Origin: Escherichia phage vB_vPM_PD112
Sequence record: NC_054928.1
DNA length: 64,000 nucleotides
Reading direction: 5' to 3' (one strand)
The notes under the pieces are model-generated. The model worked only from the letters and a program-made list of their open reading frames with translations, was not told the DNA's origin and searched no databases. The stretch's first letter is position 1, and each line of letters begins with the position of its first letter. This document shows, in pieces, positions 29,672 through 40,407 of this stretch. A program made the position numbers and the translations under genes.

Positions 29672-29885
29672 ATTTTACTTCCTCACCTGTTCCCAAATCA
29701 TATTCAACTAAACGAATAGGTTCATGAATTCCATATCCTTGAACAGAAATTTCTGTCGTAGGATAAATTCCATCAATATCGCCCATATTCCACGCTTCAT
29801 TAAATTGCTGTTCGCCTGAATTACTAAACCACTCGGCGAAAGCATTTAGCACATCTTCAGAACCTTCAATAATTATCTTTGCCAT
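29664..29885 (-). CDS. hypothetical protein
   Basis: ORF track. Confidence 0.45.
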   Translation of the reverse strand: MAKIIIEGSEDVLNAFAEWFSNSGEQQFNEAWNMGDIDGIYPTTEISVQGYGIHEPIRLVEYDLGTGEEVKYD

Positions 29886-30247
29886 TACAAACTCTCAGTA
29901 AAGGTACGAGCAATAACGTCGCGTTGCTGTTCCGGAGTCAGAGAGTTAAAGCGAACTGCGTATCCGGATACACGGATGGTCAGCTGCGGATATTTTTCCG
30001 GATGCTTAACTGCATCTTCCAGAGTTTCACGACGCAGAACGTTTACGTTCAGGTGTTGACCACCCTCAATTTTAACTGTAGGCTGTGTTTCAATTTCAAT
30101 TTCACGGGCATGCAAACCATAGAAAATTTCTGGGTCTACAAAAGAGTCCTCTTTAAAGGTTTTAGAGACAATAATTCGTGCTTGAATACCATCTTCAAAA
30201 TAAATAGTACCTTTATGTGTGCCTTCAAGAATTTGATATGCTTTCAT
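29885..30247 (-). CDS. grcA: autonomous glycyl radical cofactor (GrcA/YfiD-like; T4 Y06I family)
   Basis: C-terminal 60 aa with RVSGYAV glycyl radical motif match recalled E. coli GrcA; 3' coding segment visibly GC-richer than surroundings. Confidence 0.85.
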
Positions 30248-30254
30248 ATAAACC

Positions 30255-30635
30255 TCAATTAGAAAATAAATTTATCCAAGATTGTTCTTTAATTAAAAAT
30301 GGCTCAGAATCATATGCCATTAAACTCTGTGTGATTAGTCCTTTAAAAGGCCCATCAATAAATTCCATGGTAAAGTATGGAATTTTATTCATTAATCTCG
30401 CATTAGGAGCAGTACATAAAACTCTGCATCCTTTGAATACGCCTTTTTGCAATTTGTATTGCTTAGGATAAAATTCGCTTAAAATGTTATTTTTTGCCAA
30501 AATTTCAAAATGATTCACCAATTTATTTTTAATAGTTTTTGGTGAAAAATAAAGATATTCGAAAAGCTGAGTGTCTGTCATCATTGCATTCCGATTACGA
30601 AAAACTGTGGACGAGTAATACCACCAATGCAGCAT
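30255..30635 (-). CDS. hypothetical protein
   Basis: ORF track. Confidence 0.45.
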
Positions 30636-31171
30636 TTACTATTGCAGCAGTGTTGCACAGTTTCAATATGAATATCGTAAATTTTATCCATATCAGGAGA
30701 TTTAACAGGCTCATCGATTATATACAAAATTCGAGAAAGCGATAAACCTCTGAACTTGCTACCTCTATTACCAACAAAACTACGGACAGAATCAGTAAAT
30801 AAACGGAATCGAATATCATCGCTAGAATAACGAGAAAATTCTTTTTTAATGCGGCCCGCAGAAATTTTAGCGTAAGCTGAAGTATTAGAAAGAACAATAA
30901 CTGTTCCACCATCATACAACCAATTAGCGGCAAAATTAGTTACTGCAGTTGATTTACCAGATTGTCTGCCACCATCTAAACGAAGTGTACAATATTCTTT
31001 AAATAAATGCGACGAATCAGGTACATAAAATCCACTATTACAAATTTCTTCTACTCTAGCATCAGAATGGTGTGTAAAAGCATTCATCAGGGATAGATAA
31101 GGACCAGTTAAAAATGTTCTCATTTTATTCTCTCTAAATTTGGGCCATTCCATGGCGCATGAATTGTCCAT
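30581..31171 (-). CDS. P-loop NTPase-like protein
   Basis: Walker A GGRQSGKST, Walker B-like ILYIIDEP; start may be internal Met (residue 17, near 31123). Confidence 0.5.
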   Translation of the reverse strand: MDNSCAMEWPKFRENKMRTFLTGPYLSLMNAFTHHSDARVEEICNSGFYVPDSSHLFKEYCTLRLDGGRQSGKSTAVTNFAANWLYDGGTVIVLSNTSAYAKISAGRIKKEFSRYSSDDIRFRLFTDSVRSFVGNRGSKFRGLSLSRILYIIDEPVKSPDMDKIYDIHIETVQHCCNSKCCIGGITRPQFFVIGMQ

Positions 31172-31264
31172 TTCTGTATTTACCCATTACCGCACTTGGG
31201 CTCGACCTTATTACAGGTTGGCGGGAATCCCTCACAGAATCATGAGGTCCAGGTTGTTCCCATG

Positions 31265-31738
31265 TTATTTGAACGATTTAACGTACTGAATAGAACCTTT
31301 ACTATTCACGAAAGCGATTTTACCATTTTTATTATACATGGTAGCAGTACGCTGATAACCATAAGTTTGTTTACCAGATTGATAACCAACTAATGCGAAA
31401 TTATCTTCACCCATTTTATTCTGTTTAGCGCGAATACGTTCATGTCCATGCGCCATAAGAACCTTAGCATCACCAGTTGCAATGGATCGACGAGTTTTTT
31501 CATCTTCAACTGTATTAACAAAATCATCAAATGAATCAAATTTAGCATGAGATTTATTATACAGTTTTCCATCTACTGCATAATTATATCCCTGTACATC
31601 CATCTCAACTTCTGTGCCATCATCTAATACAGCAGTAATTTTCTGTCCTTTTTTAAATTTCAAAAGATCAGTAAAAGATTCAGCAATAATTTGAGAATTA
31701 ATAGCTGCTTCAGTAATAAATTCTTGATATGTTTTCAT
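31265..31738 (-). CDS. internal (capsid-packaged) protein with capsid targeting sequence
   Basis: N-terminus MKTYQEFITEA matches T4 internal-protein CTS (MKTYQEFIAEA) with xxE cleavage context; lies next to e as ipIII does in T4. Confidence 0.65.
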   Translation of the reverse strand: MKTYQEFITEAAINSQIIAESFTDLLKFKKGQKITAVLDDGTEVEMDVQGYNYAVDGKLYNKSHAKFDSFDDFVNTVEDEKTRRSIATGDAKVLMAHGHERIRAKQNKMGEDNFALVGYQSGKQTYGYQRTATMYNKNGKIAFVNSKGSIQYVKSFK

Positions 31739-31781
31739 ATGTTTCCTTTAAATGTAAATATTTTAATTAGTAACTGTGAAT

Positions 31782-31811
31782 ATACTATCACAGTTCTAGG
31801 AGAAAGTAAAC
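31782..31811 (-). promoter_or_regulatory. T4-type early promoter upstream of internal protein gene
   Basis: GTTTAC ... TGATAGTAT. Confidence 0.45.
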
Positions 31812-31815
31812 AACT

Positions 31816-32346
<531 letters not shown>

Positions 32347-32802
32347 TTAAAAGAGGTTGTTCATTATTCGGTAAAGTGAAGGACCCATCACATATTGCCA
32401 CTGAGTACGAGGAATAAGAGCAAAAGCGTCCATCTCTGGAATCATAACGCCATCTTTATTTTCAAAATAAGACTCGCAATGGCAATTTCTAAACATCTCA
32501 TGCTCTACTGGAATCGTATAATAAAATAACTGTAAGTCTTTATTACTAGAATATTTAAATACACCTAGGTCTTCTAGAAGGTCTGGATTATAATTGCTAA
32601 AACCAGTCTCTTCTAAACATTCTCTTCGTGCTGCATCTAGTACGCTTAAATCAGAATTTTCTACGCGGCCCTTTGGGATATCCCAGCGATGTGCCATCAT
32701 TCCAGGCTTACGAGAACCAGTAACCCGTCCCATGAATAAATCTTTATCTTCGGTCATAAAGATAATACCAGCTGATAGTGTTTTCATTTTAATTTCCTGC
32801 AT
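32347..32802 (-). CDS. nudE: Nudix hydrolase NudE
   Basis: 151 aa; Nudix box GRVENSDLSVLDAARRECLEETGF. Confidence 0.85.
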   Translation of the reverse strand: MQEIKMKTLSAGIIFMTEDKDLFMGRVTGSRKPGMMAHRWDIPKGRVENSDLSVLDAARRECLEETGFSNYNPDLLEDLGVFKYSSNKDLQLFYYTIPVEHEMFRNCHCESYFENKDGVMIPEMDAFALIPRTQWQYVMGPSLYRIMNNLF

Positions 32803-36350: not shown

Positions 36351-36824
36351 TTATTTGATTTGTTTAGCAGACCAAATGCGGTCTTTGATAATTTTTTGGA
36401 TGTCTTCAACATATTCAAGAGAGTGAACATGTGGGTTATCTTTGAAACTATAAGCACGAGCTAACTTTTGGCCTTCAGTTTTGATTACTAAAAGCTCTTT
36501 AAGGATAGCTTCATATCTGGAGATAATTCCTTTAACGATATTTTTCTCTTGTGTGACTTTAGGATCTGCTTTAGGAGCAGGTTTACCCGAAGCCTTTGCA
36601 AAAGCAGCGCCAGTAGCAACTAAACTTTTCCAGGCCATACTAACTGCATTTCCCGTAAATCCTTCTGCTTTCATGTCGCGAGCAAACTGGAATCGTGATT
36701 CGTCAGAAGCATCTTTATAGGAATATTTACCCGCTGCAATGGCTGCTTTTGCGACAGCTTGAATTTCGGTGCTAGATGCTTCATTTAACACCGCTTCATT
36801 TAAAAATTGAGCATATGATTTCAT
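36351..36824 (-). CDS. internal (capsid-packaged) protein with capsid targeting sequence
   Basis: N-terminus MKSYAQFLNEA is CTS-like; own late promoter TATAAATA upstream; terminator hairpins on both sides. Confidence 0.6.
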   Translation of the reverse strand: MKSYAQFLNEAVLNEASSTEIQAVAKAAIAAGKYSYKDASDESRFQFARDMKAEGFTGNAVSMAWKSLVATGAAFAKASGKPAPKADPKVTQEKNIVKGIISRYEAILKELLVIKTEGQKLARAYSFKDNPHVHSLEYVEDIQKIIKDRIWSAKQIK

Positions 36825-36861: not shown

Positions 36862-36869
36862 TATTTATA
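36862..36869 (-). promoter_or_regulatory. late promoter TATAAATA (gp55-dependent)
   Basis: Exact TATAAATA on minus strand about 40 nt upstream of internal protein gene start (36824). Confidence 0.6.
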
Positions 36870-37215: not shown

Positions 37216-37292
37216 TGGTCGAGGCAGAAGGATTCTAACCTTCAACCAACGGATTAGAAATCCGTTGCTCTATACAATTGAGCTATGCCCCG
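37216..37292 (-). tRNA. tRNA-Arg (anticodon UCU)
   Basis: Hand-folded cloverleaf; 7-bp acceptor stem with one G-U; anticodon loop TTTCTAA; encoded CCA. Confidence 0.7.
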
Positions 37293-37295
37293 TAA

Positions 37296-37961
37296 TTAAA
37301 ATTTCATTTTTCGACCTTTAAACCATCCTTCTGGAATTGGGTCAGTTTTCTTAATACGTTTAGAAACTTTTTCATCTAATGAATGAATCCACATCATGCC
37401 AAATTGGGAATTCTTTTCACCTTGTTGGTGTTTATTTCTGGCGTGAGATTCTTTCATTTTATTAATAGTTTCAGGAGTATGATGCTTATTTAAAAATCTG
37501 CTATTATTTAAAAATTTTTCCCTGTATTCAGGAGTTGACCACAAGCGTTTAAATACATTTGAACCATTTTTACGATATTTTTCTTGAAGTAAAATATCAT
37601 TTTTAAAACGTGACTTAAACGATTTAGCTCCTTTTAAACTAGCGTCTTTCTTCTGATTTAGCATCTCAGGAATATTTATATGATCCCATCCACCTTCACC
37701 GCCAAGTTTTAAATTATACACATCAGGTCTATTTAAAAACTCTTCTGTGACAATATTTTTCTCGGCTTCAAGCATAGATTCTTTATCGTCAAAATATTCT
37801 AATATTTCTTTAGAAAAATTTTCTATACCATACCTGTCTTGGGCTCTTTTTAATAATTTACCAGAACCCATATATCCATCATCTAAATTTTCGGTAGAAT
37901 GCACACCAATATAAATTTTATTATTAATTTTATTTGTTATTTTATAAGCGTAATGGAACAT
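37296..37961 (-). CDS. segB: GIY-YIG homing endonuclease SegB
   Basis: 221 aa; YAYKITNKINNKIYIGVHST GIY-YIG motif; inside tRNA cluster as in T4. Confidence 0.85.
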   Translation of the reverse strand: MFHYAYKITNKINNKIYIGVHSTENLDDGYMGSGKLLKRAQDRYGIENFSKEILEYFDDKESMLEAEKNIVTEEFLNRPDVYNLKLGGEGGWDHINIPEMLNQKKDASLKGAKSFKSRFKNDILLQEKYRKNGSNVFKRLWSTPEYREKFLNNSRFLNKHHTPETINKMKESHARNKHQQGEKNSQFGMMWIHSLDEKVSKRIKKTDPIPEGWFKGRKMKF

Positions 37962-38002
37962 AAATATCTCCTATTTCTAAGAGTATTTATGTTCCCAAAA
38001 TA

Positions 38003-38076
38003 TGACCCAGACCAGATTCGAACTGATAACCTTTCCCTTATGAGGGGACTGCTGCTAACCATTGAGCTACAGGGCC
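38003..38076 (-). tRNA. tRNA-Ile (anticodon CAU; may score as Met)
   Basis: Hand-folded; T-arm ATCAG/TTCGAAT/CTGGT; anticodon loop CTCATAA; one acceptor mismatch. Confidence 0.65.
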
Positions 38077-38082
38077 TTGATA

Positions 38083-38155
38083 TGCTGATTGACGGAATCG
38101 AACCGCCGACCTTCTCATTACAAGTGAGTTGCTCTACCTACTGAGCTAAATCAGC
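38083..38155 (-). tRNA. tRNA-Thr (anticodon UGU)
   Basis: Acceptor GCTGATT/AATCAGC; anticodon loop CTTGTAA; T-loop TTCGATT. Confidence 0.8.
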
Positions 38156-38162
38156 GAAATTA

Positions 38163-38249
38163 CGGAGGCGATAGGATTTGAACCTATGAGTCGCCGGAGC
38201 GACTGCCGGTTTTCAAGACCGGTGCATTAAACCACTCTGCCACGCCTCC
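38163..38249 (-). tRNA. tRNA-Ser (anticodon UGA), long variable arm
   Basis: Acceptor GGAGGCG/CGCCTCC; anticodon loop CTTGAAA; long extra arm; T-loop TTCAAAT. Confidence 0.8.
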
Positions 38250-38251
38250 AG

Positions 38252-38325
38252 TCTCCGTGGCAGGATTTGAACCTACGACATTCTGCTCCCAAAGCAGACG
38301 CTCTACCAAACTGAGCTACACGGAG
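38252..38325 (-). tRNA. tRNA-Pro (anticodon UGG)
   Basis: Acceptor CTCCGTG/CACGGAG; anticodon loop TTTGGGA. Confidence 0.8.
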
Positions 38326-38337
38326 TAAATTAAATTT

Positions 38338-38409
<72 letters not shown>

Positions 38410-38415
38410 AAACTT

Positions 38416-38502
38416 TGGTACGAGAAGTGGGACTCGAACCCACAAGGAAATCATTCCGCAGCATTTTAAGTGCTGTGCCTTTACCAATTTGACCATTCTC
38501 GC
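38416..38502 (-). tRNA. tRNA-Leu (anticodon UAA), long variable arm
   Basis: Acceptor GCGAGAA/TTCTCGT; anticodon loop CTTAAAA; encoded CCA. Confidence 0.8.
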
Positions 38503-40149: not shown

Positions 40150-40407
40150 TTATTTTAAATCTTCTAATCGTTTCTTCATCTTAGAACCGTTCTTAGCGAT
40201 TTCGCCTGCATCAGAGCATAATGCTAAAAGCGCTTTAACTTTAGTTTGGTCTCCTTTAAAAGATGAAGGATCGACTGCAGCAGCAAGTTCTTTAATACGA
40301 GAGAAAAGACGCTCAGCTTCAGCTAAAGCCATTCCAAGCTTTACTTCCATACCATGAGAAGATTCAGTAATAGTAGTTTTTGTAGCAAACTCTTTGAAAG
40401 TTTTCAT
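40150..40407 (-). CDS. internal-protein-like small protein with CTS-like N-terminus (ipI locus)
   Basis: N-terminus MKTFKEFATKTTITE resembles capsid targeting sequence; immediately upstream of 57B. Confidence 0.55.
   Translation of the reverse strand: MKTFKEFATKTTITESSHGMEVKLGMALAEAERLFSRIKELAAAVDPSSFKGDQTKVKALLALCSDAGEIAKNGSKMKKRLEDLK

Follow-up and report, generated by a model that had tools for sequence, protein, structure and literature searches.

Ip4, a T2-type internal head protein beside the lysozyme gene of Escherichia phage vB_vPM_PD112, as a candidate injected inhibitor of host restriction

Beside the lysozyme gene e of Escherichia phage vB_vPM_PD112 lies a small gene whose product begins with a capsid targeting sequence (CTS) of the T4 internal-protein type and continues with a body that the internal proteins of T4 do not account for. 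Which protein is this, would it be packaged with the DNA, and what would it do in the cell that receives it? No phage protein enters the host cytoplasm before the internal proteins, and four of these (Ip1, Ip2, Ip3 and Bas37_0260) have by now been shown to counter type IV restriction. We examined the gene in a stretch of 64,000 nucleotides of sequence record NC_054928.1 (hereafter the window), starting from an initial annotation that had called it a variant internal protein with an unfamiliar body and a candidate anti-defence factor.

The interval from 31265 to 31738 on the minus strand is exactly one open reading frame, including its TAA stop codon; it starts with the ATG at 31738 and encodes 157 residues, the first of which read MKTYQEFITEAAINSQIIAES (Table 1). 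The product is identical to Ip4 of phage T2 over all 157 residues (100% amino-acid identity) and 99% identical to Ip4 of phage K3 (UniProt Q38388), the sole significant match in the BFVD structure library. Residues 1-157 align with positions 1-158 of the Pfam profile DUF7412 (PF24183) at 319.4 bits, against a cut-off of 27 (E = 5.7e-96), and the full length of the protein matches PHROG 3155, 'internal virion protein' (E = 6e-102). By megablast, ip4 has matches in 393 phage records and is 100% identical in Escherichia phage vB_EcoM_CE1; the homologues in RB32, RB51, Shfl2, PP01 and T2 bear the annotation "Ip4" or "IpIV internal head protein". The Ip4 of T2, K3, RB32, RB51 and PP01 (Q38388; AYD82724.1) is the same protein, with the same length and the same placement downstream of e, and we see no substantive difference between these genes and that of the window, except that denV or ipIII stands between e and ip4 in some phages. 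Judged by this identity, the reading frame is ip4, which encodes a T2-type internal head protein long catalogued in T2-like phages. Databases and literature already contain the gene under this name, the family, the variability of the locus and the anti-restriction hypothesis, and the window matches the T2 reference. The novelty implied by the term 'variant' therefore falls away, as the body is that of the known Ip4 of T2, K3 and RB32, belongs to DUF7412 and represents the commonest allele at its locus.

Table 1. Features of ip4 and its flanks, in window coordinates.
Feature	Position	Strand	Basis
ip4 CDS, Ip4/IpIV internal head protein	31265..31738	-	ORF list, Pfam PF24183, PHROG 3155, T2 Ip4 identity
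Capsid targeting sequence (CTS), residues 1-10, MKTYQEFITE, ending in the gp21 motif I-T-E↓A	31709..31738	-	Likeness to T4 IPII/IPIII
Residues 11-20, AAINSQIIAE, possible second gp21 site I-A-E↓S	31679..31708	-	Conserved [ILM]-x-E followed by S/A
Ip4 body, residues 21-157, basic (pI about 9.3)	31268..31678	-	Predicted fold and conserved motifs
Ribosome-binding site AAGGAAA, ending 3 nt upstream of the ATG	31742..31748	-	Sequence read directly
Early-promoter-like element in the e-ip4 spacer, GTTTAC, 18 nt spacer, TAGTAT	31782..31811	-	Sequence; function inferred
8-bp hairpin in the e-ip4 spacer, AACTGTGA-TAGTATAT-TCACAGTT	31772..31795	-	Flank comparison
Two T4-type late promoter boxes TATAAATA upstream of e	32324..32344 (motifs at 32324 and 32337)	-	Motif positions
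Conserved 3' junction GGGAACAACCTGGACCTCATGATT, identical to the T4 denV-vs.8 spacer (24 nt)	31238..31261	-	Direct comparison with T4

The N-terminus was compared with the CTS of the T4 internal proteins. Residues 1-11 of Ip4 (MKTYQEFITEA) are identical at 10 of 11 positions to those of T4 IPII and IPIII (MKTYQEFIAEA), the sole change being A9T. Mutagenesis of IPIII assigned capsid targeting mainly to residues 4 and 7 and processing by gp21 to residues 8 and 10 (summarised in PMC9026906), and Ip4 retains Y4, F7, I8 and E10, that is, every determinant so defined. The statement of the initial annotation that this N-terminus reproduces the T4 CTS and its protease cleavage context is thus borne out, at 10 of 11 residues and with all four determinants kept. 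Translated in six frames, the window contains two matches to a strict CTS pattern, compared with a mean of 0.0 in 200 shuffles. In addition, 84 phage records without the remainder of ip4 have its first 31-32 nucleotides, at 100% DNA identity, in other ip genes; because the pattern never arose in the shuffles and the 5' DNA is identical to that of other ip genes, the match is not a matter of chance. M1, K2, F7 and E10 are nearly invariant in the Ip4 family, as is E20 (15 members).

The gp21 motif, (L/I)-x-E followed by a small residue, is present twice in Ip4, as ITE↓A at residues 8-11 and as IAE↓S at residues 18-21 (arrows mark the cleavage point), and a distant family member, P0016, carries a duplicated LNE↓S site. 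In a confident structure model of Ip4, residues 11-19 have pLDDT values below 50. Since the second gp21-type site is conserved and the residues before it are disordered in the model, residues 11-20 may form an extended propeptide, with mature Ip4 starting at S21. We found no documentation of Ip4 in virions, or of its cleavage, in the searchable literature. A 10-residue CTS suffices to package foreign proteins (PMC9026906), and the features of the Ip4 N-terminus make it very probable that Ip4 is a packaged internal protein.

Behind the CTS, the resemblance to the T4 proteins ends, as the initial annotation had stated. BLASTP of Ip4 against T4 IPI, IPII and IPIII aligned the first ~13 residues only, plus a weak, CTS-driven extension into IPII, and hhalign of a CTS-less Ip4 profile against mature IPI, IPII and IPIII returned probabilities of 0.1-1.2%. 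High identity to T4 IPIII, for which the alignment had been proposed as a test, was not found: mature Ip4 shows no homology to the IPIII family (PHROG 5341), with BLASTP covering residues 1-13 only, an hhalign probability of 0.2% and a different PHROG. We also considered a remote homology between Ip4 and IPII, indicated by a DUF7412 match of T4 IPII at E = 0.022 and a 31% BLASTP match, and rejected it because both vanish once the CTS is removed. PF11634 (IPI_T4), which T4 IPI itself matches at 7e-54, gave no match to Ip4.

The likeness to the T4 proteins is therefore one of setting and general character. T4 IPIII and IPII have in common with Ip4 a near-identical CTS (MKTYQEFIAE versus MKTYQEFITE), the leader, the ribosome-binding site, the hairpin, the e-adjacent locus, and a small, basic product, whereas their mature parts are unrelated to it (hhalign 0.1-0.2%, different PHROGs). 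T4 IPI* (PF11634) is an injected inhibitor of the GmrSD of E. coli CT596; as predicted for Ip4, it has a CTS-type propeptide, a gp21 cut after I-T-E, a small basic mature form and a compact alpha/beta fold, but the hhalign probability between the two is 1.2%. The pI of mature Ip4 is 9.1-9.3, and those of the T4 internal proteins are 9.0-9.65.

To define the family, we used a word-indexed search, which returned 14 clusters, all of them DUF7412, at 61-99% identity to Ip4, and an HMM scan of 1.84 billion representatives, which contributed just three extra, distant phage members (33-37% identity) in addition to fragments and one spurious repeat protein. These distant relatives are encoded on T4-like contigs, beside denV-like, dNMP kinase, Acb1, Vs and rI genes, and keep CTS-like N-termini (MNFxxFLNE↓S). 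As far as these searches reach, the Ip4 family is small and confined to T4-like phages. A sequence search of solved structures with Ip4 gave nothing below E = 0.5, and NCBIfam and PADLOC gave sub-threshold noise only. The body of Ip4 is predicted to consist of a helix, a beta-hairpin, three helices and a four-stranded beta-sheet, in that order, and the residues that are invariant across the wider family fall in four motifs: NKSxA, NKxG, A(L/M)IxYQxG and GY(Q/S)RT. An enzymatic function was considered on account of H64, H99, E111 and D112, which are conserved among close members; it is disfavoured because these histidine and acidic residues are not invariant in the wider family.

P0014, a DUF7412 member of 184 residues from Klebsiella phage vB_Kpn_AM_K5, diverges into an unrelated C-terminal tail at about residue 132; this record seems to contain a frameshift or an insertion. 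Codons 28-30 of ip4 (within KFKKGQ) contain a run of six adenines, A6, at 31649-31654 on the minus strand, and P0020, a 39-residue product of one public assembly, is a variant allele with a +1 frameshift exactly at this run. A preprint on phage contingency loci places T2 ipIV among repeat-bearing genes, with zero variant reads measured. Our search of the literature for Ip4, IpIV and DUF7412 returned a single, incidental mention, of ipIV as a control locus in T2.

To see how ip4 is placed, we compared the locus with that of T4 and other relatives. On the minus strand, the order of genes is nudE (32347-32802), e (31816-32310), ip4, vs.8, vs.7 and vs.6, so ip4 is directly downstream of e; the e locus is one of two variable ip loci, the other being beside 57B. 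The leader of ip4 is that of T4 ipIII and ipII: the e-ip4 spacer matches the T4 e-ipIII spacer, 8-bp hairpin included, and the 30 nt preceding the ATG match the T4 ipII leader. Downstream, the junction that is identical to a T4 spacer (Table 1) appears to mark the edge of the swapped ip4 cassette. As both flanks are common to T4, ip4 occupies the position of the ipIII-ipII-denV block. Five gene orders are seen at the e/vs.8 locus: e-ipIII-ipII-denV-vs.8 in T4; e-ip4-vs.8 in the window, T2, RB32 and fPS-2; e-denV-ip4-vs.8 in RB51, PhiZZ30 and sb2; ipIII-ip4-vs.8 in ECO07P2; and e-denV-vs.8 in Bas37. These arrangements suggest that ip4 is an interchangeable cassette in the e/ipIII/ipII/denV/vs.8 locus, and such cassettes would be swapped between phages through the common promoter, ribosome-binding site and CTS sequence on one side and the conserved spacer on the other.

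Of the 499 Tequatrovirus-like phage records that contain a gene e of this kind, 309 carry full-length ip4 (94.7-100% nucleotide identity), which makes it the commonest allele at the e locus, held by the majority; it is missing in about 38% of relatives, T4 and Bas37 among these. T4 ipIII is found in 239 records, many of which are Klebsiella phages, and the co-occurrence of ipIII and ip4 in phage ECO07P2 argues that the two are non-redundant. The gene for endonuclease V (denV, UV repair) is absent at the e-vs.8 locus of the window (31172-31815, compared with T4), as it is in T2 and RB32; in other relatives, it lies upstream of ip4 or alone at the locus.

The neighbouring genes show features of their own. 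Compared with T4, vs.8 (30581-31235, minus strand) is disrupted: its first 33 codons, from the GTG start at 31235 (MRDSRQPVIRSS...), are in another frame than the remainder (30581-31171), which has a P-loop and weak similarity to a terminase N-terminal domain. The annotation of T2 lists vs.8 as N- and C-terminal fragments, that of RB32 as a shortened product of 189 residues. A G+C-rich stretch downstream of ip4 was examined as a candidate RNA and rejected; it has no Rfam or tRNA match and codes for the N-terminal part of vs.8, here out of frame. The product of vs.6 (29885-30247, minus strand; 120 residues) has a C-terminal glycyl-radical domain (Pfam Gly_radical, E = 2e-18) and resembles the small autonomous glycyl-radical cofactor GrcA/YfiD.

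Among the expression signals of ip4, the AAAATATTTACATTTAAAGGAAACAT-ATG stretch is the same as that upstream of T4 ipII. At the position homologous to the early-promoter-like element of the e-ip4 spacer, the depositors of Yersinia phage fPS-2 annotated a 'predicted early promoter'; in our sigma-70 scan, the element was below threshold. The same 8-bp hairpin precedes T4 ipIII, and a variant of it precedes T4 ipII. Taken as a structured element, the hairpin was rejected (-13.6 kcal/mol, z = -1.47), its stability not being significant compared with shuffles, and it is not a terminator either, as the terminator scan predicted no terminator-like site between e and ip4. Late transcription that starts at the two promoter boxes ahead of e may plausibly read through into ip4, since no terminator was predicted to separate the two genes.

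To determine how the gene evolves once in place, we compared eight Tequatrovirus copies of ip4. Among these phages, dS is 0.09-0.34 and dN is 0-0.007, with 9-26 synonymous nucleotide differences and three amino-acid substitutions in total, and the constraint is as strict as that on the neighbouring lysozyme gene e, vs.6 and vs.7. The whole Ip4 protein is under strong purifying selection, which counts for a real, specific function. For an inhibitor, one might expect the signature of an arms race fought by point mutation, and so little amino-acid change does not fit this, though the neighbours are equally constrained. Variation at this locus appears to arise through cassette exchange and not through residue change, so that an arms race, if there is one, would be run by cassettes.

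What that function could be is suggested by other CTS-bearing proteins. Each of Ip1, Ip2 and Ip3 inhibits one GmrSD enzyme of its own, with no cross-protection, and T4 IPIII and IPII are inhibitors of GmrSD-ECOR17 and GmrSD-ECOR21/BrxU (PMC12373910). Infection of ECOR17 requires IPIII, which is active in that host even when it lacks the CTS (PMC9391042). Bas37_0260, a CTS protein of phage Bas37, inhibits McrBC (preprint 10.1101/2025.11.20.689424), and it is unrelated in sequence to Ip1, Ip2 and Ip3, as these are to each other, except for the CTS. By description, Bas37_0260 is like Ip4 in that the N-terminal signal alone is common to it and IPI-III, and it extends the class beyond GmrSD; it differs from Ip4 in its length (77 residues) and in its place at the ipI locus, the e locus of Bas37 being without ip4. 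For the latter reason, the HIDEN-SEQ data on Bas37 are uninformative for Ip4.

By analogy with Ip1, Ip2, Ip3 and Bas37_0260, we favour the reading of Ip4 as an injected nuclease inhibitor. The CTS would lead to co-assembly of Ip4 into the prohead scaffolding core, where the prohead protease gp21 would cut it after E10 and possibly again after E20. The product, a basic protein of about 15.5-16.5 kDa, would lie with the DNA in the head and be ejected with it into the cell. In the cytoplasm, Ip4 would act stoichiometrically, by direct binding, and inactivate one host nuclease that attacks glucosyl-hydroxymethylcytosine DNA; from the analogy, the most probable target would be a type IV restriction enzyme of a subtype outside those already screened. 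We give the whole chain, from CTS-dependent packaging through inhibition of a type IV restriction subtype beyond those screened, a probability of roughly 0.5.

When ip4-10 were assayed against a panel of active GmrSD variants, no reproducible inhibition was obtained (Supplementary Fig. 9, PMC12373910; their ip4 is equated with ours by name). In addition, T2, though it carries Ip4, is restricted by GmrSD-ECOR21 and GmrSD-ECOR17 (PMC12373910), the enzymes that Ip2 and Ip3 inhibit. As T2 Ip4 is identical to that of the window, this counts against the narrow hypothesis of a GmrSD target. The suggestion of the initial annotation that the protein is a candidate anti-defence factor has thus fared unevenly: as an analogy, it is strengthened by Ip2 and Ip3, which act on GmrSD, and by Bas37_0260, which acts on McrBC, while the GmrSD panel gave ip4 no reproducible effect.

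We consider it possible, though rather doubtful, that Ip4 is packaged and injected but has a target other than a type IV restriction enzyme, either another first-response defence or a host function; examples would be an exonuclease, a DNA-sensing immune system of another kind, a nucleoid factor or a transcription factor. One form of this idea, which we hold equally tentatively, is that Ip4, once injected, antagonises a first-line defence other than GmrSD and McrBC by means of a fold without a solved relative. If this is true, the target should be a widespread, conserved host factor of Enterobacteria, because Ip4 is the commonest internal protein at the locus and is nearly invariant.

Ip4 might also be mainly structural, a DNA-associated basic head protein that helps in charge neutralisation or in packaging and ejection and has no specific host target. 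Its composition would suit such a role (17 lysines, net charge +4 to +5), as would its strong conservation, and in the T4 head, internal-protein lysines are in contact with the phosphates of the DNA (PMC3012670). We regard this as improbable, however: T4 ipI, ipII and ipIII were all scored non-essential, the e locus of Bas37 has no ip genes, about 38% of relatives do without ip4, and a counter-ion role would not require the near-total conservation of 137 residues, polar loop residues included.

That the CTS is a recombination relic at a common 5' cassette and Ip4 an ordinary cytoplasmic early protein which is not packaged accords with the early-type promoter and with a leader and first 32 nt that are DNA modules common to ip genes, but it is very improbable, given that the CTS is kept at the protein level in DNA-diverged members (61-82% amino-acid identity), that CTS-like N-termini persist at 33-37% identity, that ten residues of CTS suffice for the packaging of foreign proteins and that late promoters ahead of e may serve ip4 by read-through.

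The injected inhibitor of restriction thus remains our preferred reading. Ip4 is carried by most T2-like phages, many proposed for therapy among them, and finding its target would give one more pairing of an injected protein with a defence and help to explain host range.

Two other reading frames of the window have CTS-like starts. The first (36351-36824, minus strand, 157 residues) starts with MKSYAQFLNE↓A, which includes a gp21-type L-N-E↓A site, and a perfect T4 late promoter, TATAAATA, lies at 36862-36869, about 30 nt upstream of a good ribosome-binding site; the promoter is preceded by a terminator-like hairpin. The product belongs to PHROG 2280 ('unknown function') and to no Pfam family, and it is a 'hypothetical protein' in about 399 phage records; its MK(S/T)YA(Q/E)F start is kept in RB27, sutha and Mosigvirus phiC120. 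A comparison by hhalign with the CTS-less Ip4 profile revealed no profile similarity to Ip4. This frame probably encodes an unnamed internal, packaged protein, and it may be the more interesting lead in the window.

The second (40150-40407, minus strand, 85 residues) begins with the CTS MKTFKEFATKTTITE↓S and is T2 Ip5, at 97.7% nucleotide identity with a one-residue indel. It belongs to PHROG 3499 and lies at the ipI locus beside 57B, which here contains no other ip gene. In Bas37, bas37_0261 (annotated 'ipI', of the same length as Ip5) adjoins the gene for the McrBC inhibitor, bas37_0260, and its transposon mutant had reduced fitness in one clinical E. coli isolate.

Between these two frames, a tRNA cluster at 37216-38502 on the minus strand has seven genes (Arg, Met-CAU, Thr, Ser, Pro, Gly and Leu). 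The T4 record has eight tRNAs, including Gln and Ile where the window has the tRNA with the CAU anticodon, and the set of T2 differs again.
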